Below are positions 2,186-26,009 of a stretch of 30,030 nucleotides of DNA, in pieces. The stretch is taken from the IMG/VR virus record IMGVR_UViG_2778261231_000012; one strand, written 5' to 3'. Every line of letters begins with the position of its first letter. Within the stretch, counting starts at the first letter, position 1. The DNA is from a virus (lineage: Duplodnaviria > Heunggongvirae > Uroviricota > Caudoviricetes). The notes beneath the pieces were generated by a model that saw nothing but the letters and a program-made list of their open reading frames with translations, was not told the origin of the DNA and made no database searches. The position numbers and the translations under genes were made by a program.

Positions 2186-2328
2186 CATTCGAATCCTACT
2201 TTGCTGATCATCTTCGTCTGCGATGGACTCGGTTACGCATCTATCGTCACCCGGGTTCATTTGCTACGGACTACCGAATTTTACGCAATTACATCAGCCG
2301 CTATAAACCATCAGGAGCAGAAGCATGA
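2182..2328 (+). CDS. small basic protein (48 aa), position-equivalent to DLP12 ylcG
   Basis: ATG overlaps the rusA stop (ATGA) and its stop overlaps the next gene's start (ATGA), i.e. translational coupling at both ends; translation [48 protein letters not shown]; below the ORF-track size cutoff. Confidence 0.5.
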
Positions 2329-3089
2329 ATCTCGAAAACACAGTGAAATACCACTTCGCGAAGTCAACGATGATTAGCGACGCTCCACGTGCAACCGCAT
2401 CTGACTCATTAACCGGCACTGACATTATGGCGGCGATCGGAATGACACAGAGCCGGGCTGATCTCGGGTTCAGTGCATTCCTCGGTAAGATGGATATCAG
2501 CGATTACGATCGCGAGCGAGCAATTGACCTGCTGACCAAATATGCAATTGAGCACTGCGATAAGGTTGCCGCCTTACGCAAGCTTGAGAGCGATGTTAAG
2601 CCAAAGGTAATGCAAGTTCTCGCAACTTTCGCCTTTGCTGATTACTCCCGGAGCGCCGCCAGTACCAGAACGTGCGACTGCTGCAATGGAAATAAGTTTG
2701 TCGAAGCTGAAGTAATGACGATGAAGCATATCGGACAGCCACACCTTAGCGAAAAAAGAGAGATGGTTAAGGTGCTTTGCCACAAATGCAAAGGGAAGGG
2801 TGCTCTGACCAACGCATGCCAGTGCAATGGCAAAGGAACAGTATTAGACAAAGAGAAAACTATTCTACAGCGCGGCGTTCCTGCATATAAAACCTGTACG
2901 CGCTGCAATGGGCGTGGTTATGCCAGATTGCTACCTGATAGCGTCCGTAAATACATCTGCGTAACGGTGATGGATATACCTGAAACCACGTGGCGCAGGT
3001 CTTACAAGGATTTTTTCGAAAGTCTGGTAGGTGAGTGCATCAAGCAGGAAGAGTACGCAAACCAGATGTTGAACAAAGTCACGCGATAG
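2325..3089 (+). CDS. putative late-gene antiterminator (Q-like) with DnaJ-type CxxCxGxG zinc-finger repeats
   Basis: 254-aa ORF with AGGAG SD; four Cys motifs CDCCNGNK, CHKCKGKG, CQCNGKG, CTRCNGRG; sits between the nin/rusA block and a promoter/terminator pair preceding the lysis cassette, the canonical Q position. Confidence 0.45.
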   Translation: MNLENTVKYHFAKSTMISDAPRATASDSLTGTDIMAAIGMTQSRADLGFSAFLGKMDISDYDRERAIDLLTKYAIEHCDKVAALRKLESDVKPKVMQVLATFAFADYSRSAASTRTCDCCNGNKFVEAEVMTMKHIGQPHLSEKREMVKVLCHKCKGKGALTNACQCNGKGTVLDKEKTILQRGVPAYKTCTRCNGRGYARLLPDSVRKYICVTVMDIPETTWRRSYKDFFESLVGECIKQEEYANQMLNKVTR

Positions 3090-3160: not shown

Positions 3161-3194
3161 GAAATCAATGATGGAGTAGTGCATTCATTCGATG

Positions 3195-3224
3195 GCCCTG
3201 AGTTAATAGCTCGGGGCTTTTTTG
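3195..3224 (+). terminator. intrinsic terminator (tR'-like) about 30-55 nt downstream of the predicted late transcription start
   Basis: 8-bp stem gccctgag/ctcggggc (one G-U), 7-nt loop, then TTTTTTG. Confidence 0.6.
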
Positions 3225-3240
3225 TATCTGCACAACAGAT

Positions 3241-3478
3241 AATTGCATTGGGGTGACCGGTTAATCCCGTTACGCTAACCGAAACAGGCGCAGTGCAATT
3301 ATCGTTGTGGTGAATGCGCAGGCTGATGCGCTAACTTATCAGCTAGATGGTGAGGTAAAGGCTCACCATGGCGACGACGGGTAGTTCATTTACATGCCGG
3401 AAAACACAGCACCGGTCACCACACACCAAATACCTACCAGGACCATAAGAGCAAAAGCTCAACGCACTACCCTCTATT
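3241..3478 (+). ncRNA. candidate structured non-coding RNA region between Q and the holin
   Basis: No ORF longer than a few codons on the + strand; hairpins at 3316-3331 and 3347-3369; 10-nt long-range complement 3252-3261 (ggtgaccggt) / 3411-3420 (accggtcacc); ends at a strong intrinsic terminator. Confidence 0.25.
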
Positions 3479-3505
3479 GCCCACCGCGCCGTGGGCTTTT
3501 TTATT
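3479..3505 (+). terminator. intrinsic terminator immediately upstream of the lysis cassette
   Basis: gcccac-cgcgcc-gtgggc hairpin followed by TTTTTTATT. Confidence 0.65.
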
Positions 3506-3609
3506 GCAGGCCGCAGATATCATTTTCAGATGCCATGTAGCAATCAGAGTCTGACGGCCTTTCCCCTACAAACACACACAGCGCCATCCGAAAAATCGGA
3601 GGTGAGGCT

Positions 3610-3888
3610 ATGACCAGAATGAGCACTATTTACAGCAGACTTTCATATGGAACAGGAACCACGCTGACCGGCTGCGGTGTATCAGCGAAGGCATATGCCG
3701 AAACAGCTAAAACAGCAAAAGAGGTGTCCTGGATGTTGGCCGACAGAATTGCAGGGTTAAGCCTGAGCGACTGGGCAATTATTGTCGGTATCGCATGCAC
3801 GGTAATCACCTGTGCAGTGAACTGGTATTTCCGCTGGAAAGAACGGGAGGATCGGCGCAATGGCTATGTCTCTAAAGCTGAAGAATAA
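3610..3888 (+). CDS. holin, S21-like pinholin class with dual-start motif (MTRM)
   Basis: 92 aa; GGAGG SD; Met1/Met4 separated by Arg (holin/antiholin dual start); weakly hydrophobic Gly/Ala/Thr-rich first TMD, second TMD WAIIVGIACTVITCAVNWYF, charged C-terminus REDRR as in recalled phage 21 S. Confidence 0.8.
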   Translation: MTRMSTIYSRLSYGTGTTLTGCGVSAKAYAETAKTAKEVSWMLADRIAGLSLSDWAIIVGIACTVITCAVNWYFRWKEREDRRNGYVSKAEE

Positions 3889-4408
3889 ATTGAGCGCAGC
3901 GGTCGTTGGTTTGATTCTTGCCGGGGCTTCCGCACCCGTGATTCTCGATCAGTTTCTGGATGAGAAAGAGGGTAACAGCTTGACAGCATATCGCGACGGC
4001 GGCGGACTCTGGACCATTTGCCGTGGTGCAACAATGGTTGATGGCAAGCCAGTAGTACAGGGCATGAAGCTGTCAGCTGAGAAATGCGCCCAGGTAAACG
4101 CCATTGAACGCGACAAGGCGCTGGCGTGGGTTGACCGAAATATCAAAGTACCACTGACCGAACCACAGAAAGCGGGTATCGCTTCTTTCTGCCCATATAA
4201 CATCGGCCCCGGAAAATGTTTCCCGTCTACGTTCTATAAGCGAATTAATGCTGGCGATACGAAAGGAGCCTGTGAAGCTATCCGCTGGTGGATTAAAGAC
4301 GGTGGCCGCGATTGCCGCCTGACCAAGGGCCAGAAGGATGGATGTTATGGGCAGGTAGAACGGCGGGACCAGGAAAGCGCACTGACGTGCTGGGGGATAG
4401 ACCAGTGA
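3860..4408 (+). CDS. SAR endolysin (T4-lysozyme-like, GH24) with N-terminal signal-anchor-release domain
   Basis: N-terminal Gly/Ala-rich TMD LSAAVVGLILAGASAPVIL; catalytic spacing E-x8-D-x5-T in EGNSLTAYRDGGGLWT; overlaps holin 3' end; start may be 3860 or 3866. Confidence 0.85.
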   Translation: MAMSLKLKNKLSAAVVGLILAGASAPVILDQFLDEKEGNSLTAYRDGGGLWTICRGATMVDGKPVVQGMKLSAEKCAQVNAIERDKALAWVDRNIKVPLTEPQKAGIASFCPYNIGPGKCFPSTFYKRINAGDTKGACEAIRWWIKDGGRDCRLTKGQKDGCYGQVERRDQESALTCWGIDQ

Positions 4409-4908
4409 AGCCGGGTGGCATCTGCATCATTGTGATTGTTGCGTTGGTAGGTTCGTTTCTCGCTGGCAGTGAGTGGACGAACCGCAGCTGGAAAATAAAG
4501 TGGGCTGACCGGGATAGCGCGGAATCTTCACAGGAAGCGAATGCACAGACCGCAGCTCGTATGATTGAACAAGGGCGAACAATCGCCCGGGATGAGGCCG
4601 TTAAAGATGCTCAAGCTCAAGCAGCGAGCGCTGCCGTTACTTCTGCTGGCCTGGCTACCACTGTTAAGCAGCTGCGCGCCGAAGCAACAAAACTCGCTAC
4701 CCACATGGACGCCGCAAAGCACACCGCAGATCTCGCCACTTCCGTCAGAAGCAAAACAGCCGGAGCCAACGCAGCAATGCTTGCCGACATGCTCGGAAGC
4801 CTTGCAGAAGCAGCTCGATATTATGCTGGACGATCTGACGAAAGCTACCGGGCAGGAATGACGTGTGAGCGGATTTACGAATCAGTGCGACTGTCGAATA
4901 ACCAATAG
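4405..4908 (+). CDS. Rz: i-spanin Rz
   Basis: GTG start overlapping the endolysin stop (GTGA); N-terminal TMD ICIIVIVALVGSFLAGS; Ala/Gln-rich coiled-coil-like periplasmic domain; contains Rz1 embedded in the +1 frame. Confidence 0.8.
   Translation: MKPGGICIIVIVALVGSFLAGSEWTNRSWKIKWADRDSAESSQEANAQTAARMIEQGRTIARDEAVKDAQAQAASAAVTSAGLATTVKQLRAEATKLATHMDAAKHTADLATSVRSKTAGANAAMLADMLGSLAEAARYYAGRSDESYRAGMTCERIYESVRLSNNQ
4592..4861 (+). CDS. Rz1: o-spanin Rz1 (lipoprotein) fully embedded in Rz
   Basis: Signal peptide with lipobox LSSC (LLLLAWLPLLSSC); proline-rich mature part; alternative start at ATG 4607. Confidence 0.75.
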   Translation: MRPLKMLKLKQRALPLLLLAWLPLLSSCAPKQQNSLPTWTPQSTPQISPLPSEAKQPEPTQQCLPTCSEALQKQLDIMLDDLTKATGQE

Positions 4909-4915
4909 GCGATTC

Positions 4916-5164
4916 ATGCTGCTAGTTTTCGTCCTCTTGTCGATATGGCTCTGTCGGCAACATGAGGAACGCCGCTGGCCTTCGGTCGGCTTTAATGTCT
5001 CATCGCTGATGCTCATCACCGAGCAACCGGCACAATTCCTGAATTTGAAGCTGATAATGGTGAGATTATCCCCGGTTATACCGGACTTATCGCCTATTCA
5101 GAATCACTGGATCACGGTGTGTTGCAACTCGACGACTAGCGGCATTACAGCAGGCATTCACTGA
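4916..5164 (+). CDS. possible small membrane protein (uncertain)
   Basis: ORF beginning MLLVFVLLSIWLC (one predicted TMD) right after Rz; no convincing SD; followed by the hairpin at 5183-5201. Confidence 0.2.
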   Translation: MLLVFVLLSIWLCRQHEERRWPSVGFNVSSLMLITEQPAQFLNLKLIMVRLSPVIPDLSPIQNHWITVCCNSTTSGITAGIH

Positions 5165-5182
5165 GTGCCTGTGATAATGCAA

Positions 5183-5201
5183 CAGCCCGTACAAAACGGG
5201 C
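5183..5201. terminator. hairpin between convergent genes (candidate bidirectional terminator)
   Basis: agcccgt-acaaa-acgggct perfect 7-bp stem between the stop of the + strand ORF (5164) and the stop of the - strand gene (5208). Confidence 0.4.
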
Positions 5202-5207
5202 TTGGAT

Positions 5208-5822
5208 TTATCTCTTTGTTGCGTTCATGGTCACATGGTAAACGAATTGGCTAAATTGGTTATCCCAGCGCCCATTATGATTAGCTGCAACTAATTGCAT
5301 TAACGCCTGCATTAACTTGCTGAACAGCAAGATTAACTTAAGTCTGTTTTTTGAACTGTCACTATCTAAGGAAACTTCTTCGGTTAATTGATTCTCGGCG
5401 TTAAAAATACCCAGTTTTGATTCTTCCATGCTGGGTTCCGTTGGATGCTGTTTAAAGTATTCAGTCAGAGTATCCTTCAGGCTCTGGATCCTTGAATCAG
5501 CAATGCTTTGTATTGATGGATTGTGTGCAAGGTCATTACGCATTGAGTTGATGGTTTTAAGTGATTTCATAAGTTCCGGGGGGATTCCCAGGTTTCCCGC
5601 CATGGATATTTTAGTATTACATTCGATTAAAAGTTTGTTTTTATCTCTTCCAAAGAGATCTTGGCAGTCACAGCATGCGCATATCCATGCTTCGACCATG
5701 CGCTCACAAAGTAGGTGAATGCGCAATGTAGTACCCACATCGTCATCGCTTTCCACTGCTCTCGCGAATAAAGATGGAAAATCAATCTCATGGTAATAGT
5801 CCATGAAAATCCTTGCATTCAT
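5208..5822 (-). CDS. hypothetical protein with HEPN-like R-N-x-x-A-H motif; candidate abortive-infection/defence moron in the lambda bor position
   Basis: 204-aa antisense ORF with GGAGG SD 4 nt before ATG; motif SMRNDLAHN at residues 94-101; locally A+T-rich DNA; transcribed against the late operon with a hairpin after its stop. Confidence 0.6.
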   Translation of the reverse strand: MNARIFMDYYHEIDFPSLFARAVESDDDVGTTLRIHLLCERMVEAWICACCDCQDLFGRDKNKLLIECNTKISMAGNLGIPPELMKSLKTINSMRNDLAHNPSIQSIADSRIQSLKDTLTEYFKQHPTEPSMEESKLGIFNAENQLTEEVSLDSDSSKNRLKLILLFSKLMQALMQLVAANHNGRWDNQFSQFVYHVTMNATKR

Positions 5823-5841
5823 AAATCCTCCAGGTAGCTAT

Positions 5842-6033
5842 ATGCAAATTGAAACAAAAGAGATGGTGATCTTTCTAAGAGATGATGGAATCTCCCTTCA
5901 GTATCCCGATGGTCAATGCGCTGGATATGGGATAGATGGGAATATGCTGATTTTTATGGGACAGAGTTGCGAACTGTTCCCAACTAAAATCATTTTGCAC
6001 GATCAGCGCACTACGAACTTTACCCACAAATAG
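5842..6033 (+). CDS. possible small ORF (63 aa from ATG) in the divergent intergenic region; doubtful
   Basis: Track ORF 5803-6033; weak SD; no recognisable motif; may simply be promoter/leader DNA for the flanking divergent genes. Confidence 0.15.
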   Translation: MQIETKEMVIFLRDDGISLQYPDGQCAGYGIDGNMLIFMGQSCELFPTKIILHDQRTTNFTHK

Positions 6034-6121
6034 TCAGGTAATGAATCCTGATATAAAGACAGGTTGATAAATCAGTCTTCTACGCGCATCGCACGCGCAC
6101 ATCAAAGAGAGTCTTTCAGTA

Positions 6122-6188
6122 GTGAGCCTGGGTGATGCCGTTAGGTTGCGTTTACCTCTCGGGCGGCATTGCCGTGCGACAGGCTCAC
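6122..6188 (+). promoter_or_regulatory. long nested stem-loop in the 5' leader of the 6208 gene
   Basis: gtgagcctg (6122-6130) pairs with caggctcac (6180-6188); inner atgccg (6135-6140) with cggcat (6164-6169); innermost aggt/acct; ends 5 nt before the AAGGA SD. Confidence 0.4.
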
Positions 6189-6207
6189 GCCTAAAAGGAA
6201 ATATTCC

Positions 6208-6936
6208 ATGAGTAACAAAATCATTACGCTATCTGGCGCTGCTAATGAAGTGCTTTATGCGCTGTTTTTCCGTGGCGCGTTGCTGTCTGGTGATCTGCCT
6301 TCTAAATCTGGCACAGCCGAATTGCGCGAGCTTGGTTTTGCTGAAACCAGACACACAGCAACTGAATACCAGAAAGAAAATCACTTTACCTTTCTGACAT
6401 CAGAAGGGCAGAAATTTGCCGTTGAACACCTGGTCAATACGCGTTTTGGTGAGCAGCAATATTGCGCTTCGATGACGCTTGGCGTTGAGATTGATACCTC
6501 TGCTGCACAAAAGGCAATCGACGAGCTGGACCAGCGCATTCGTGACACCGTCTCCTTCGAACTTATTCGCAATGGAGTGTCATTCATCAAGGACGCCGCT
6601 ATCGCAAATGGTGCTATCCACGCAGCGGCAATCGAAACACCTCAGCCGGTGACCAATATCTACAACATCAGCCTTGGTATCCAGCGTGATGAGCCAGCGC
6701 AGAACAAGGTAACCGTCAGTGCCGATAAGTTCAAAGTTAAACCTGGTGTTGATACCAACATTGAAACGTTGATCGAAAACGCGCTGAAAAACGCTGCTGA
6801 ATGTGCGGCGCTGGATGTCACAAAGCAAATGGCAGCAGACAAGAAAGCGATGGATGAACTGGCTTCCTATGTCCGCACGGCCATCATGATGGAATGTTTC
6901 CCCGGTGGTGTTATCTGGCAGCAGTGCCGTCGATAG
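6208..6936 (+). CDS. hypothetical protein (242 aa), unknown function, immediately upstream of cos
   Basis: ORF with AAGGA SD 7 nt upstream of ATG 6208; no motif I can recognise. Confidence 0.65.
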   Translation: MSNKIITLSGAANEVLYALFFRGALLSGDLPSKSGTAELRELGFAETRHTATEYQKENHFTFLTSEGQKFAVEHLVNTRFGEQQYCASMTLGVEIDTSAAQKAIDELDQRIRDTVSFELIRNGVSFIKDAAIANGAIHAAAIETPQPVTNIYNISLGIQRDEPAQNKVTVSADKFKVKPGVDTNIETLIENALKNAAECAALDVTKQMAADKKAMDELASYVRTAIMMECFPGGVIWQQCRR

Positions 6937-6949
6937 TGTGCAATTGATA

Positions 6950-7181
6950 ATTATTATCGTTTGCGGGTCCTTTCCGGCGATCCGCCTTGTTACGGGGCGG
7001 CGTCCGCGCAGATTCTCGCTATTTATGAAAATTTTCTGGTTTATGCCATTTCCGTTCTTCTTCTTGTTTACTCATTGTTTTTGTTAAAAACGTCCTCTCT
7101 CCAGAAAGGAAATGCTGAGCAAGGAAAACGGAAGTTTACCGTTGATTGTTTCCTTTCTCTGTTTTTTGCCAGGAGTAAGCC
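6950..7181 (+). other. cos site (cosQ-cosN-cosB) of lambda type; predicted 12-nt cohesive end GGGCGGCGTCCG at 6995-7006
   Basis: Strong resemblance to the recalled lambda left end: ACG/GGGCGGCG(T)CC(G)CGC...TTCTCGCTATTTATGAAAATTTTC.GGTTTA...TTTCCGTTCTTCTTC...TTTCCTTTCTCTGTTTTT, immediately upstream of Nu1. Confidence 0.8.
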
Positions 7182-7727
7182 ATGGAGGTTAACAAAAAAC
7201 GCTTATCCGAAATTTTCGGGGTAAGCGTCCGAACGATTCAGAACTGGCAGGAGCAAGGTATGCCGGTTGTCCGCGGTGGTGGCAAAGGTAATGAGGTTCT
7301 CTTTGAATCTGCTGCTGCAATCGAATGGTACAGTGCGCGCGATGCAGCTATAGAAAATGAAAAGTTGCGGAAGGAAGTTGAAGATCTCCGTATCGCTTCT
7401 GAGTCCGATCTTCAACCTGGCACGATTGAATATGAGCGACACCGACTTACGCGAGCTCAGGCTGACGCTCAGGAATTAAAAAATGCAAAAGAGTCCGCTG
7501 AAGTGGTGGAGACCGCATTCTGCACGTTCGTGCTGTCGCGGGTAGCCGGAGAAATCGCCAGCATTCTCGATGGAATACCTCTGTCGGTTCAGCGGCGCTT
7601 CCCGGAGCTGGAGAACCGACATATTGATTTCCTCAAGAAGGACATCATTAAGGCCATGAACAAGGCAGCTGCGCTGGATGAAATGATACCGGGGTTGCTG
7701 AGTGAATATATCGAACAGTCAGGTTAA
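7182..7727 (+). CDS. nu1: terminase small subunit Nu1
   Basis: Close match over its full length to recalled lambda Nu1 (MEVNKK...IRTIQNWQEQGMPV.RGGGKGNEV...[10 protein letters not shown]). Confidence 0.95.
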   Translation: MEVNKKRLSEIFGVSVRTIQNWQEQGMPVVRGGGKGNEVLFESAAAIEWYSARDAAIENEKLRKEVEDLRIASESDLQPGTIEYERHRLTRAQADAQELKNAKESAEVVETAFCTFVLSRVAGEIASILDGIPLSVQRRFPELENRHIDFLKKDIIKAMNKAAALDEMIPGLLSEYIEQSG

Positions 7728-9624
7728 GGGGCTGCAGCACTCTGCGCGGGCGGGGTTACGTTCGCTGTACCGGCCGCAACCGCAAACAGCAGTTGAATGG
7801 GCAGATGAGAATTATTATCTCCCGAAAGAGTCTGCCTACCAGGAAGGGCGCTGGGAAACACTGCCATTTCAGCGTGCAATTATGAATGCGATGGGTAATG
7901 ACTATATTCGCGAGGTGAATGTCGTTAAATCGGCTCGTGTCGGCTACTCAAAAATGTTGCTCGGCGTTTACGCATATTTCATCCAACATAAACAGCGTAA
8001 CTCCCTAATATGGTTACCAACCGACGGTGATGCTGAAAACTTCATGAAGTCTCATGTAGAACCGACCATTCGTGATATTCCGACGTTGCTGGCGCTTGCT
8101 CCCTGGTACGGTAAAAAACACCGGGACAATACGCTGAGCATGAAGCGTTTCTCGAATGGTCGTGGTTTCTGGTGCCTGGGCGGTAAGGCTGCAAAAAACT
8201 ACCGTGAAAAATCAGTTGATGTGGCTGGCTACGACGAGCTCGCCGCTTTCGATGATGACATCGAGAAAGAAGGTTCTCCCACCTTTCTGGGTGATAAGCG
8301 TATTGAGGGTTCTGTATGGCCGAAATCCATTCGCGGATCTACACCGAAAGTCAAAGGTACGTGCCAGATAGAAAGAGCTGCTAAGGAGTCTGAACATTTT
8401 CTTCGGTTCCATGTTCCATGCCCACACTGTGGGGAAGAGCAGTATCTGAAATTCGGTGATAAAGAGACACCATTTGGCTTCAAATGGTCTCCGGGAGAAC
8501 CTGCCAGCGTTTACTACCTCTGTGAACACAATGCCTGTGTGATTAAACAACAGGAGCTGGAATTTCTGGAGGCCAGGTATATTTGTGATGAAACAGGTAT
8601 CTGGACACGAGACGGCCTTAACTGGTTTTCTTCATCCGGTACCGAAATTGAACCTCCTGACAGCGTTACATTCCACATCTGGACCGCATATAGCCCGTTC
8701 ACAACCTGGGTGCAGATCGTCAAGGACTGGATAAAAACAAAAGGTGATACGGGTAAGCGAAAAACTTTCGTTAACACGACCCTGGGCGAAACGTGGGAAC
8801 CGAAAATAGGTGAACGACCCGATGCTGAAGTTTTAGCGGAACGAAAAGAGCACTTTGAAGCGTCTGTGCCGGAGCGAGTGGCATATCTGACAGCGGGTAT
8901 TGACTCCCAGCTTGACCGTTACGAAATGCGTGTTTGGGGATGGGGGCCGGGAGAGGAAAGCTGGCTTATCGACAAAATTATCATTATGGGTCGTCATGAT
9001 GATGAGTCGACTCTCGCTCGAGTTGATGAAGCGATCAACAGGACGTATAAGCGCCAGAACGGTCTCGAAATGGTTATATCCCGCACTTGCTGGGATATTG
9101 GCGGCATTGATCCCACCATCGTCTACAACCGCTCAAAAAAACACGGTCTGTTTCGTGTGATCCCTATAAAGGGGGCGTCGGTTTATGGAAAGCCAGTGGC
9201 GAACATGCCACGCAAGCGTAACAAGAATGGTGTTTACCTCACAGAGGTAGGAACAGACACCGCAAAAGAGCAGATTTATAACCGTTTCACGCTGGTGGCG
9301 CAAAGAGACGAGCCGCTGGCGGGAGCGGTTCATTTCCCGAATAACCCAGAAATCTACGATCTAACAGAGGCCCAACAACTAACAGCTGAAGAGCAGGTGG
9401 AAAAATGGGTAGACGGAAAGAAAAAGATCGTCTGGGACAGCAAAAAACGACGAAATGAGGCGCTCGATTGCTTTGTTTATGCACTGGCGGCGCTGCGTAT
9501 AAGCATATCCCGCTGGCAGCTAAATCTTGATTCACTTCTGGCCAGCCTGCTGGAGGAAGAAGGCAGCCGTAACAATAACAAGACCCTGGCGGATTACGCG
9601 CGGGCATTATCTGGAGATGAATAA
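7702..9624 (+). CDS. A: terminase large subunit gpA
   Basis: 640 aa; close match to recalled lambda gpA (MNISNSQV...[33 protein letters not shown]...); overlaps Nu1 3' end as in lambda. Confidence 0.95.
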
Positions 9625-22457: not shown

Positions 22458-25400
22458 ATGGCTACTTCCACTCCGATTAGAGGCCGCAAGGGCGGCAGTT
22501 CCAGTTCCCGTACCCCTACAGAACAGCCAGACGATCTCCAGTCCGTAGCGAAGGCCAAGATTCTTGTTGCGCTGGGAGAAGGGGAATTTGCGGGGCAGTT
22601 AACGGCTAAAGATATCTATCTTGACGGCACGCCACTGGAGAATGCAGACGGATCGCAAAACTTCAGCGGCGTGGCATGGGAGTTCCGCCCGGGGACTCAG
22701 GCTCAAAAGTATATTCAGGGCATCCCCGGTACCGAGAATGAAATCAGCGTAGGTACCGAAGTTTCAAGCGCTACGGCCTGGACGCATACCTTTACCAACA
22801 CCCAGCTGTCAGCCATTCGTCTGCGCCTCAAATGGCCATCACTGTTTAAACAGGAGGACGACGGCGATCTGGTCGGCTATTCGATTAATTACGCTATCGA
22901 TCTGCAGACAGATGGCGGTACCTGGCAGACCGTGCTTAATACCAGCGTCACCGGGAAAACCACGTCAGGCTACGAACGCAGCCACCGTATCGACTTACCG
23001 CAGGCGGGAAGCACCTGGACGGTACGTCTTCGTAAGCTCACCGCAGATGCGAACAGTGCGAAAATTGGCGACACGATGACGCTGCAGAGCTACACGGAGG
23101 TAATCGATGCCAAACTGCGCTATCCAAACACCGCGCTGCTGTACATTGAATTCGATTCAAGCCAGTTTAACGGCTCCATCCCGCAAATTTCCTGTGAACC
23201 GCGCGGGCGCGTTATCCGCGTGCCGGATACTTACGATCCGGAAACCCGGACCTATAGCGGTACCTGGACGGGGGCGTTTAAGTGGGCATGGACGGACAAT
23301 CCGGCGTGGATTTTTTACGATCTGGTGGTGAGCGACCGTTTTGGACTTGGCGACCGCCTGACGGCGGCAAATATTGATAAATGGACGCTTTACCAGGTCG
23401 CACAATATTGCGATCAGCTGGTTCCTGATGGTAAAGGCGGTAGCGGCACCGAGCCTCGCTATACCTGTAACGTGTACGTGCAGGAGAGGAATGACGCCTA
23501 TACCGTGTTACGTGATTTTGCGGCGATATTCCGTGGCATGACGTACTGGGGCGGCAATCAAATCGTTGCACTGGCAGATATGCCCCGCGATGTTGATTAC
23601 AGCTACACCCGCGCTAACGTGGTTGACGGCCGCTTTACCTATTCTGGCAGCACCACTAAAAACCGCTATACCACCGCGCTGGTTTCCTGGTCAGATCCGG
23701 GTAATGCCTACGCAGATGCGATGGAGCCGGTTTTTGAACAGGAGCTCGTCGCTCGCTTTGGCACAAACCAGCTCGAGATGACAGCCATTGGCTGTACCCG
23801 GCAGTCTGAGGCAAACCGTAAGGGGCGCTGGGGGATTCAGACCAATAACAAGGATCGCATCGTATCGTTTGATGTTGGTCTGGACGGCAACATTCCACAG
23901 CCTGGTTATATTATCGCGGTTGCCGATGAGCTGTTATCCGGAAAGGTGATGGGAGGGCGTATCAGCGCGGTTAATGGTCGCGTTATCACGCTTGATCGTG
24001 ATTCCGCTGCCGTTGCCGGAAGCCGTCTTATGGTTAACCTGCCGTCTGGCGCATCGCAGAGCAGGACGATTCAGAGCGTAAACGGCCGGGCTGTCACCGT
24101 GACCACGGCATACAGCGAAACACCGGCAGTCGAATCGGTATGGATTGTCGAATCCGACGAGCTTTATGCACAGCAATATCGTGTTATCAGCGTCTCTGAT
24201 AATAACGACGGCACGTTTTCTATTACTGGTGCTTTTCACGATCCGGATAAGTATGCCCGTATCGATACCGGCGCCATCGTCGACCAGCGGCCAATAAGTG
24301 TAATTCCGCCCGGTAATCAGTCCCCGCCAGCTAATATCGCGATCAGTTCGTTTTCTGTCGTTCAGCAGAATATCAGCGTTGAGACCATGCGCGTCAGCTG
24401 GGACCAGGCGAAAAATGCTATCGCGTATGAGGCACAGTGGCGTCGCAATGACGGGAACTGGGTGAATGTGCCGCGCAGCTCCACCACGTCATTCGATGTT
24501 CCGGGGATTTATGCAGGACGCTACCTGGTTCGCGTGCGTGCCATCAATGCCGCCGAAATTTCATCTGGGTGGGGCTATTCAGAAGAGAAAACGTTGACGG
24601 GTAAAGTGGGAAACCCACCGAAGCCGGTTGGCTTCATCGCTTCTGAAAACGTGGTATTCGGTATTGAGCTGAACTGGGGATTCCCGGCGAATACCGAAGA
24701 CACGCTGAAGACGGAAATTCAGTACAGCCTGACCGGTACTGAAGACGATGCCATGCTGCTGGCCGATGTGCCTTACCCGCAGCGCAAATATCAGCAGATG
24801 GGCCTTAAGGCTGGGCAGATTTTCTGGTACCGCGCGCAGCTGGTGGACCGCAGCGGCAACGAATCAGGGTACACAGAATGGGTGCGAGGACAGGCCAGCA
24901 TCGATGTTTCCGATATCACAGATGTGATTCTGGAGGAAATTAAAGACTCCGATACGTTCAAAGACCTGATCGAGAACGCGGTGGACAGCAATGAAAAAAT
25001 TGCTGGCATGGCTGACGACATCAAACAGGCCAACGATGAACTTGAGCTCCAGGCGCAGGAAATCGCAAAAAACGCGCAGGACATTGGGCAGGTTCAGACC
25101 AGTGTTAATGAGCTTTCGAGCACGGTCGGTGATGTATCTTCCTCTCTATCAGATCTTGAGCAGACCGTCGCAACGGCTGATACCGCGCTGGGCCAGCGAA
25201 TCGACAGCATCAGCGTGTCTATGGACGGCATGACGGGCGGGGTTAAGAACTCAGCCATTGCCATTATCCAGAACGGACTGGCGCAGGTGGCCACACGCAA
25301 AAGGCTTTCCGCGACGGTCGCCGGTAACAGTGCGCAGCTGGATCGTCTCGACGAGGTGATCGTCAGTGAGAAGGAAGCCACAGCACGTTCATTGCTGAGC

Positions 25401-26009
25401 CTGCGGACGGACGTCAACGGCAACAAGGCATCCATCAACAGCCTGAATCAGACGCTCTCCGACTATCAGCAGGCCACCGCCACGCAGATAAACGGCATCA
25501 CGGCGACCGTGAACGGGCATACCTCCGCCATCACCACTAACGCTCAGGCTATAGCCAACGTTAATGGCGAACTCAGCGCGATGTATAACATCAAGGTGGG
25601 GGTGTCCAGTAACGGGCAGTATTACGCTGCCGGGATGGGTATTGGGGTTCAAAATACACCCTCCGGCATGCAGTCACAGGTAATCTTCCTGGCAGACCGT
25701 TTCGCCGTGACTACTATGGTCGGCGGGACTGTAACACTGCCGTTCGTTATCCAGAATGGCCAGGCCATTATCAGGGATACAGTCATTGGCGACGGGACCA
25801 TAAGCAATGCAAAAATTGGCAATTACATCCAGTCGAACAATTATGTTGCCGGCTCTGTTGGCTGGAAACTGGATAAGTCCGGGACGTTTGAGAACTACGG
25901 TTCGACAGCTGGGGAGGGAGCCATGAAGCAGACCAACCAGACAATCAGCGTCAAGGATGGCAACAACGTTCTGAGAGTGCAGGTTGGCCGATTAACGGGG
26001 GTGTTCTGA
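22458..26009 (+). CDS. J: tip attachment / host specificity protein gpJ (central tail fibre)
   Basis: 1183 aa; lambda J-like length, position and internal motifs (YTCNVYV, FN3-like repeats); C-terminal about 300 aa look divergent from lambda J by recall. Confidence 0.95.
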   Translation: MATSTPIRGRKGGSSSSRTPTEQPDDLQSVAKAKILVALGEGEFAGQLTAKDIYLDGTPLENADGSQNFSGVAWEFRPGTQAQKYIQGIPGTENEISVGTEVSSATAWTHTFTNTQLSAIRLRLKWPSLFKQEDDGDLVGYSINYAIDLQTDGGTWQTVLNTSVTGKTTSGYERSHRIDLPQAGSTWTVRLRKLTADANSAKIGDTMTLQSYTEVIDAKLRYPNTALLYIEFDSSQFNGSIPQISCEPRGRVIRVPDTYDPETRTYSGTWTGAFKWAWTDNPAWIFYDLVVSDRFGLGDRLTAANIDKWTLYQVAQYCDQLVPDGKGGSGTEPRYTCNVYVQERNDAYTVLRDFAAIFRGMTYWGGNQIVALADMPRDVDYSYTRANVVDGRFTYSGSTTKNRYTTALVSWSDPGNAYADAMEPVFEQELVARFGTNQLEMTAIGCTRQSEANRKGRWGIQTNNKDRIVSFDVGLDGNIPQPGYIIAVADELLSGKVMGGRISAVNGRVITLDRDSAAVAGSRLMVNLPSGASQSRTIQSVNGRAVTVTTAYSETPAVESVWIVESDELYAQQYRVISVSDNNDGTFSITGAFHDPDKYARIDTGAIVDQRPISVIPPGNQSPPANIAISSFSVVQQNISVETMRVSWDQAKNAIAYEAQWRRNDGNWVNVPRSSTTSFDVPGIYAGRYLVRVRAINAAEISSGWGYSEEKTLTGKVGNPPKPVGFIASENVVFGIELNWGFPANTEDTLKTEIQYSLTGTEDDAMLLADVPYPQRKYQQMGLKAGQIFWYRAQLVDRSGNESGYTEWVRGQASIDVSDITDVILEEIKDSDTFKDLIENAVDSNEKIAGMADDIKQANDELELQAQEIAKNAQDIGQVQTSVNELSSTVGDVSSSLSDLEQTVATADTALGQRIDSISVSMDGMTGGVKNSAIAIIQNGLAQVATRKRLSATVAGNSAQLDRLDEVIVSEKEATARSLLSLRTDVNGNKASINSLNQTLSDYQQATATQINGITATVNGHTSAITTNAQAIANVNGELSAMYNIKVGVSSNGQYYAAGMGIGVQNTPSGMQSQVIFLADRFAVTTMVGGTVTLPFVIQNGQAIIRDTVIGDGTISNAKIGNYIQSNNYVAGSVGWKLDKSGTFENYGSTAGEGAMKQTNQTISVKDGNNVLRVQVGRLTGVF

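Follow-up and report, generated by a model that had tools for sequence, protein, structure and literature searches.

Within a 30,030-nt stretch of tailed-phage DNA (Caudoviricetes; IMG/VR record IMGVR_UViG_2778261231_000012; hereafter, the window), the minus-strand gene at positions 5208 to 5822 is, with high confidence, taiEcA, an already known and constitutively expressed prophage defense gene paired with the counter-defense gene atiEcA, and the reading that we favor includes a HepS-like mechanism. Its product, TaiEcA, stands alone as a HEPN-fold protein and belongs to the family of HepS from the prophage Gifsy-1, with an R/N/H triad conserved family-wide. The gene itself is nothing new, being the taiEcA/atiEcA pair of phage phi80 moved into another lambdoid prophage backbone. 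The real interest lies in the apparently unremarked family identity of Tai and HepS, which makes it a testable proposition that Tai proteins are HEPN nucleases activated by the central tail fiber protein J.

The 1.3-kb tai region had 97.6% identity to the right end of phi80 and 100% identity to a prophage of Escherichia coli Nissle 1917. The gene product was identical to phi80 orf63 (PHI80_63, TaiEcA) at 203 of 204 residues, and the small divergent open reading frame (ORF) beside it was identical to phi80 orf64 (PHI80_64, AtiEcA) at 75 of 76. Because it is nearly identical to phi80 TaiEcA, for which phenotypes are published, the gene is a known and experimentally validated defense gene. A first-pass annotation, made from the sequence alone, had suggested an uncharacterized prophage-encoded defense gene; published defense data on the 99.5%-identical phi80 protein bear out the defense role, while "uncharacterized" has to be dropped, as TaiEcA was studied by He et al. 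in 2024 (PMC11364771). The locus also has an adjacent, divergent cognate ati, which only some Tai loci possess, and lies in a moron hotspot upstream of the packaging module, with tai oriented against the late operon. The tai-ati pair was present at ≥99% identity in 80 of 5,426 complete E. coli genomes, mostly Nissle derivatives and laboratory K-12/DH5alpha strains with phi80-derived DNA. The best match to the whole window was NZ_LT883142.1.

The genes taiEcA and atiEcA were named by He et al. (Nat Commun 2024), with Tai standing for "tail assembly inhibition" (PMC11364771). TaiEcA is produced constitutively in the phi80 lysogen, which restricts HK106, HK544, and HK578 in a tai-dependent manner. 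Since DNA injection and replication are normal in the lambdoid siphophages that TaiEcA restricts, this restriction is not superinfection exclusion; TaiEcA lysogens release only tailless, noninfectious particles, and phages escape by mutations in the C-terminal portion of J (PMC11364771). Protection is seen at low but not at high multiplicity of infection (MOI), and both phi80 lysogens and pBAD-Tai strains grow normally. Lambda escapes every Tai tested, and Tai is not recognized by DefenseFinder or PADLOC (PMC11364771). Ati (orf64) is required for phi80's own reproduction, and survivors without ati carry transposon insertions in tai. It is expressed from a Q-dependent late transcript that crosses tai in antisense (a "noncontiguous operon"); when Q is expressed, TaiEcA falls. 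Ati shields the prophage's own tail assembly, and a Tai-Ati interaction was found by two-hybrid assay for the SalB pair (PMC11364771). HEPN is mentioned nowhere in the Tai paper, which explains its data without a nuclease (PMC11364771).

Residues 95 to 100 of TaiEcA read RNDLAH, exactly as the first-pass annotation had it. An Rx4H string on its own is to be expected by chance in a protein of 204 amino acids; RNDLAH is meaningful because it is conserved among homologues, not because such a string occurs. In 19 close clusters, all from Enterobacteriaceae in a word-indexed search, R95, N96, A99, and H100 were invariant. When 1.84 billion representatives were searched with a profile, 210 relatives came up, nearly all of 170 to 210 amino acids, and RNxx[A/S/G]H was present in 158 of the 168 profile matches that were retrieved. 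In the alignment underlying our broad profile, A2 (86 sequences, 17 to 74% identity), only L33, H36, E40, K71, A75, N92, R95, N96, and H100 were more than 90% conserved. The family thus carries a conserved Rx4-6H motif whose arginine is followed by a polar residue, as found in the HEPN superfamily. AlphaFold2 modeled TaiEcA with confidence (predicted local distance difference test score, 86.5; predicted template modeling score, 0.83) as a soluble, all-helical protein of one domain with the HEPN fold, and the top four Foldseek matches to this model were all HepS chains (probability, 1.00; template modeling score, 0.50 to 0.57). The C-terminal 16 residues were predicted to be disordered, yet they are conserved in close homologues.

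The HEPN-like reading of the motif in the first-pass annotation is upheld by this conservation and by membership in the HepS family, and the structure prediction and fold comparison that it proposed as a check agree with it. The proposed search with profile hidden Markov models gave a divided answer. Pfam and NCBIfam scans of TaiEcA itself returned no family at E ≤ 10, neither Abi_2 nor any curated HEPN-clan profile, while its distant relatives matched HEPN_RiboL-PSP (15 of 86; best E value, 4e-5), HEPN_Cthe2314, Abi_2, and DUF4145. Weak matches of TaiEcA were obtained to PADLOC CARF_HEPN (0.004 and 0.012) and to a PHROG labeled "abortive infection" (0.025). We considered and rejected a CARF-HEPN effector of the Csm6/Csx1 type, whose resemblance to TaiEcA is a weak match confined to the HEPN helix region and for which the 204 residues hold no CARF domain, as well as membership in Abi_2/AbiD, given that TaiEcA has no Abi_2 match.

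HepS (HEPN Solo) is a single-HEPN protein of the Salmonella Gifsy-1 prophage (Sargen et al., Nature 2026; PMC13043305; PDB 9oij and 9oik). It is made constitutively as a tetramer in the inactive state and is switched on by direct binding of siphophage J, for which the determinant in lambda is J residues 902 to 933, with F924 as the key residue and F924S as an escape mutation (PMC13043305). Activated HepS cuts the Thr, Ile, and Ser tRNAs in their anticodon loops, and both tRNA cleavage and defense need R100 and H105 (PMC13043305). Protection is given at low MOI only, with phage DNA replication barely affected and the assembly of infectious particles blocked; according to its authors, HepS binding should also prevent J trimerization (PMC13043305). 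The HepS termini fold only upon J binding, and Gifsy-1 evades its own HepS through a silent J allele with Ile at position 924 (PMC13043305). Neither Tai nor phi80 is mentioned in the HepS paper (PMC13043305). Our searches found no literature linking Tai with HEPN or HepS, but their coverage was incomplete, and the connection may already have been drawn in other work.

Both of our TaiEcA profiles matched HepS. Profile A1, built from close homologues, did so with an E value of 7e-4 and aligned R95 with R100 and H100 with H105, and the broad profile A2 matched at 6.5e-14 over ~120 positions that included the helix-1 Glu (E40), with Csm6 as the next match. In plain BLASTP, a 117-amino-acid HepS fragment (residues 25 to 141 only, taken from HMMER alignments) matched 123 of the 168 Tai-profile matches at E < 1e-3, the best at 33 to 38% identity and an E value of 5e-17. 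Because profile and BLASTP matches connect the two, HepS lies within the sequence space recovered from TaiEcA. It surfaced with profiles alone; a single-sequence search of the PDB with TaiEcA gave only a chance match, and tblastn of a 48-amino-acid HepS fragment against the phage collection found nothing. By the criteria of the HepS authors, a family member is a standalone protein of at most 250 amino acids with a single HEPN domain and an Rx4-6H motif, and TaiEcA, at 204 amino acids, is of this kind. It also shares both sequence and structural homology with HepS, with the catalytic residues aligned. It is not self-sufficient in the sense of lacking a partner or inhibitor gene, as Ati adjoins it, which is a difference of regulation and not of fold. 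On the target side, the C-terminal region of HK106 J in which TaiEcA escape mutants lie (modeled as residues 876 to 1183) includes F1104, the equivalent of lambda F924.

In the mechanism that we propose, TaiEcA would bind nascent J monomers via its termini, as HepS does. This binding would both withhold J from tail-tip assembly and open HEPN active sites, which would then cut RNA, probably in tRNA anticodon loops. The conserved, disordered C terminus of the TaiEcA model is consistent with the folding of HepS termini on J binding. Ati would act as a block by binding Tai, and the late transcript, with ati on it and tai in antisense, would be driven by Q, a dependence that is known from phi80. 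By analogy with HepS, TaiEcA is probably a HepS-type nuclease besides a J binder; for the nuclease component as such, we put the chances somewhat above even. That Tai and HepS are one family with one mechanism, in which a J-activated anticodon nuclease leaves tailless particles through J sequestration together with tRNA cleavage, seems to us slightly favored.

Several points weigh against this reading. The data of He et al. are explained without a nuclease, and an RNase role for TaiEcA would follow from homology to a protein with which its overall identity is only ~14 to 15%. Tai comes with the inhibitor Ati, a kind of partner that HepS lacks; lambda triggers HepS, yet no tested Tai restricts it. 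TaiEcA itself matches no Pfam HEPN model, and no tai promoter was convincingly identified in our scans. The main rival explanation is the published one, in which TaiEcA is a purely stoichiometric, J-binding inhibitor of tail-tip assembly, with the HEPN fold serving as a scaffold and RNxxAH being structural or vestigial. We consider this possible but doubtful. Under pure sequestration it would be hard to see why R, N, and H stay nearly invariant down to 17% identity while nearly all else varies, and the corresponding residues are those needed for HepS defense and tRNA cleavage. Protection limited to low MOI is, moreover, typical of abortive infection.

Two further explanations would remove the gene from defense altogether. 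In one, Tai-Ati would be a toxin-antitoxin or addiction module that stabilizes the prophage. The lysogen makes Tai, but Ati appears only in the late part of the lytic cycle, and still growth is normal in lysogens and in strains with pBAD-Tai; phi80 lysogens, moreover, need tai to restrict HK106, HK544, and HK578. We regard such a module as very improbable. In lambda, a minus-strand, A+T-rich, independently expressed gene, bor, lies between Rz/Rz1 and cos, and its product is an outer membrane lipoprotein for serum resistance. Position and orientation would fit a bor-like virulence or surface moron, the other possibility being a housekeeping gene; in either case the gene would be unconnected with phage conflict. 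TaiEcA, however, has no lipoprotein or housekeeping family match in Pfam or NCBIfam, its model is a soluble, all-helical HEPN fold, and a 99.5%-identical protein has experimentally documented defense activity, and so we give this explanation next to no credence. The likeness of tai to bor extends to position, strand, and A+T richness but not to homology.

Two independent studies, both centered on J, have described a direct, nonabortive assembly block (Nat Commun 2024) and an abortive HEPN anticodon nuclease (Nature 2026); in the text searched, there is no citation of one by the other. If TaiEcA is indeed a nuclease, the mechanism of Tai would need revision, and the homologues of Tai (57) and of HepS (393) would belong in one defense family. 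In that case no protein inhibitor of a HepS-type nuclease would have been known before Ati, which could be put to use as a tool against HepS-like nucleases.

The structural description of the gene in the first-pass annotation held up throughout. The 204-amino-acid minus-strand gene placed between the spanins and cos is an ORF between the Rz-like spanin gene and Nu1/terS (Table 1). Its strong Shine-Dalgarno sequence is the GGAGG at 5831 to 5827, 4 nt from the ATG, and its A+T-rich setting is reflected in a G+C content of 40.5% for the ORF and 42.1% for positions 5140 to 6160, compared to 52.5% for the whole window. The downstream hairpin is present as well; the 53-nt stretch that holds it had a folding energy of −15.7 kcal/mol (z = −2.3), which was equalled by 6 of 200 shuffles. 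The terminator scan did not call it because it lacks a proper U-run. It could be a bidirectional terminator-like element, with a poor U-run on the tai strand. A standard promoter scan upstream of tai found none, and a custom scan found a single weak candidate.

The ati ORF, delimited mechanically, starts at 5803 (76 amino acids, as annotated in phi80), and a Met codon at 5842 gives 63 amino acids. In contigs L006 and L007, Ati-like ORFs are placed head to head with homologues of tai (63% and 48% identity) and start at the equivalent of M14, and RefSeq annotates ati in Nissle with 63 amino acids. Ati-like ORFs were also recorded as neighbors of homologues at 89% and 35% identity. Because homologues and RefSeq begin at that Met, the real ati probably runs, on sequence comparison, from 5842 to 6033, with 19 bp between it and tai and no overlap. 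With this start and a gap of only 19 bp, the tai promoter must therefore fall within ati.

Table 1. Coordinates of tai, its signals, and other features of the window
Feature	Position	Strand	Remarks
Q antiterminator	2325..3089	+	Pfam Antiterm, 1.6e-43
Holin	3610-3888		Late lysis region
Lysozyme	3860-4408		Late lysis region
Rz-like spanin (DUF2514)	4312-4908		Late lysis region
G+C-rich hairpin, 7 bp (AGCCCGT/ACGGGCT)	5184..5202	-	Begins 6 nt past the tai TAA
taiEcA	5208..5822	-	204-amino-acid standalone HEPN-fold defense protein; ATG start, TAA stop; RNDLAH at residues 95-100
Shine-Dalgarno sequence of tai, GGAGG	5827..5831	-	Read directly from the sequence; 4-nt spacer to ATG at 5822-5820
atiEcA, anti-Tai counter-defense gene	5842..6033	+	Divergent from tai; function from PMC11364771
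Candidate tai promoter, sigma-70-like TTGACC-16-GAGATT, 8/12	5889..5916	-	Inside ati; weak, unverified; custom scan
orf66-like late gene ("Fur-regulated protein" / "phage tail tip fiber protein")	6208..6936	+	Directly after ati; 98% identical to phi80 orf66
Nu1/terS	7182-7727		Downstream of tai-ati-orf66
terL	7702-9624		After Nu1/terS
Central tail fiber J of resident prophage	22458..26009	+	91.7% identical to HK106 J; protein class targeted by TaiEcA

The flanks of tai are those of a lambdoid late region. Between Q and the holin gene, two hairpins, each with a T-run, lie at 3190 to 3235 and 3478 to 3510 (plus strand); they look like the terminators of tR' type that phi80 annotation shows and would fit Q-dependent read-through of the ati-bearing late operon. 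A prophage with a 98.9%-identical backbone (L009) carries a DUF6236-family gene (L009:3130-3993) in place of tai-ati-orf66 between spanin and terS (window 4908 to 7182), and because of this replacement the site can be described as a variable cargo hotspot. The tai homologues in contigs L006 and L007 are likewise antisense to phage genes. The Nissle 1917 prophage (L002) has ~180 bp more than the window between spanin and tai (window ~4900 to 5200), and its terS/terL differ from those of the window, consisting of DUF1441 and a 700-amino-acid terminase; because of this difference, the tai module is common to different backbones. Several Klebsiella phage records, and one from an Elizabethkingia phage, contain the 40 bp at 5141 to 5180 at 100% identity. 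This stretch meets the left limit of phi80 homology (window ~5139), carries a small inverted repeat, and may be a recombination boundary sequence. No phage-encoded tRNAs able to offset an anticodon nuclease were found within the window.

The resident J differed from the J proteins of HK106 and phi80 by 11 substitutions clustered at residues 1087 to 1111 (window 25716 to 25790). This stretch aligns with lambda J residues 907 to 931, inside the 902-to-933 HepS trigger peptide, and its F924 equivalent is Ile (I1104), a residue shared with the HepS-evading J proteins of Gifsy. We considered this allele as a possible co-adaptation to the resident tai and rejected the idea; the allele is not tai specific, because the near-isogenic prophage L009, which has no tai, carries the identical one.

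The orf66-like gene accompanies tai-ati in phi80, Nissle, and the window. Its protein matched residues 1021 to 1140 of the window J in BLASTP (E = 3e-5), over the trigger-equivalent stretch, which reads LIRNGVSFIKDAAIANGAI in orf66 and VIQNGQTFIRASFIQDGTI in HK106 J, and the trigger-equivalent Phe of orf66 was invariant in 20 homologues. PF09327 (the J "Phage_Tail_Tip" domain) was marginal on the window protein and is recorded for many homologues. The AlphaFold2 model of the protein was unusable (predicted local distance difference test score, 38.8). Going by these sequence similarities, it is conceivable, if weakly supported, that the orf66-like protein is a J mimic, decoy, or modulator, which is much less likely than the unity of Tai and HepS. 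A role of orf66 as an obligatory partner or decoy of Tai was not supported: it is absent beside the tai homologues in L006 and L007, its family greatly exceeds the TaiEcA clade in size, and deletion of orf66 from phi80 gave no self-immunity phenotype (PMC11364771).

The window shares with phi80 Tai/Ati the divergent gene arrangement, the location between lysis genes and terS/cos, and the orf66 that lies downstream. It differs in that its prophage has HK022/HK106-like structural genes and another Q-lysis region, lacks rha, and encodes a J with another allele in the trigger-equivalent stretch. Tha, a HEPN RNase of a Staphylococcus aureus prophage, is, as described in the literature, similar in being activated by a tail protein and in having its anti-defense in a noncontiguous operon, but it differs in being a nonspecific RNase with another tail trigger, and the HepS authors regard it as a wholly different system (PMC13043305). 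Besides their low overall identity and opposite responses to lambda, HepS and Tai occupy different genomic positions, and Gifsy-1 relies on its silent J allele where phi80 Tai relies on the adjacent Ati; nuclease activity and a tetramer have been shown for HepS only. The two are nevertheless alike in being constitutive, in protecting at low MOI, in leaving DNA replication unaffected while particle assembly is blocked, and in having J as the determinant.
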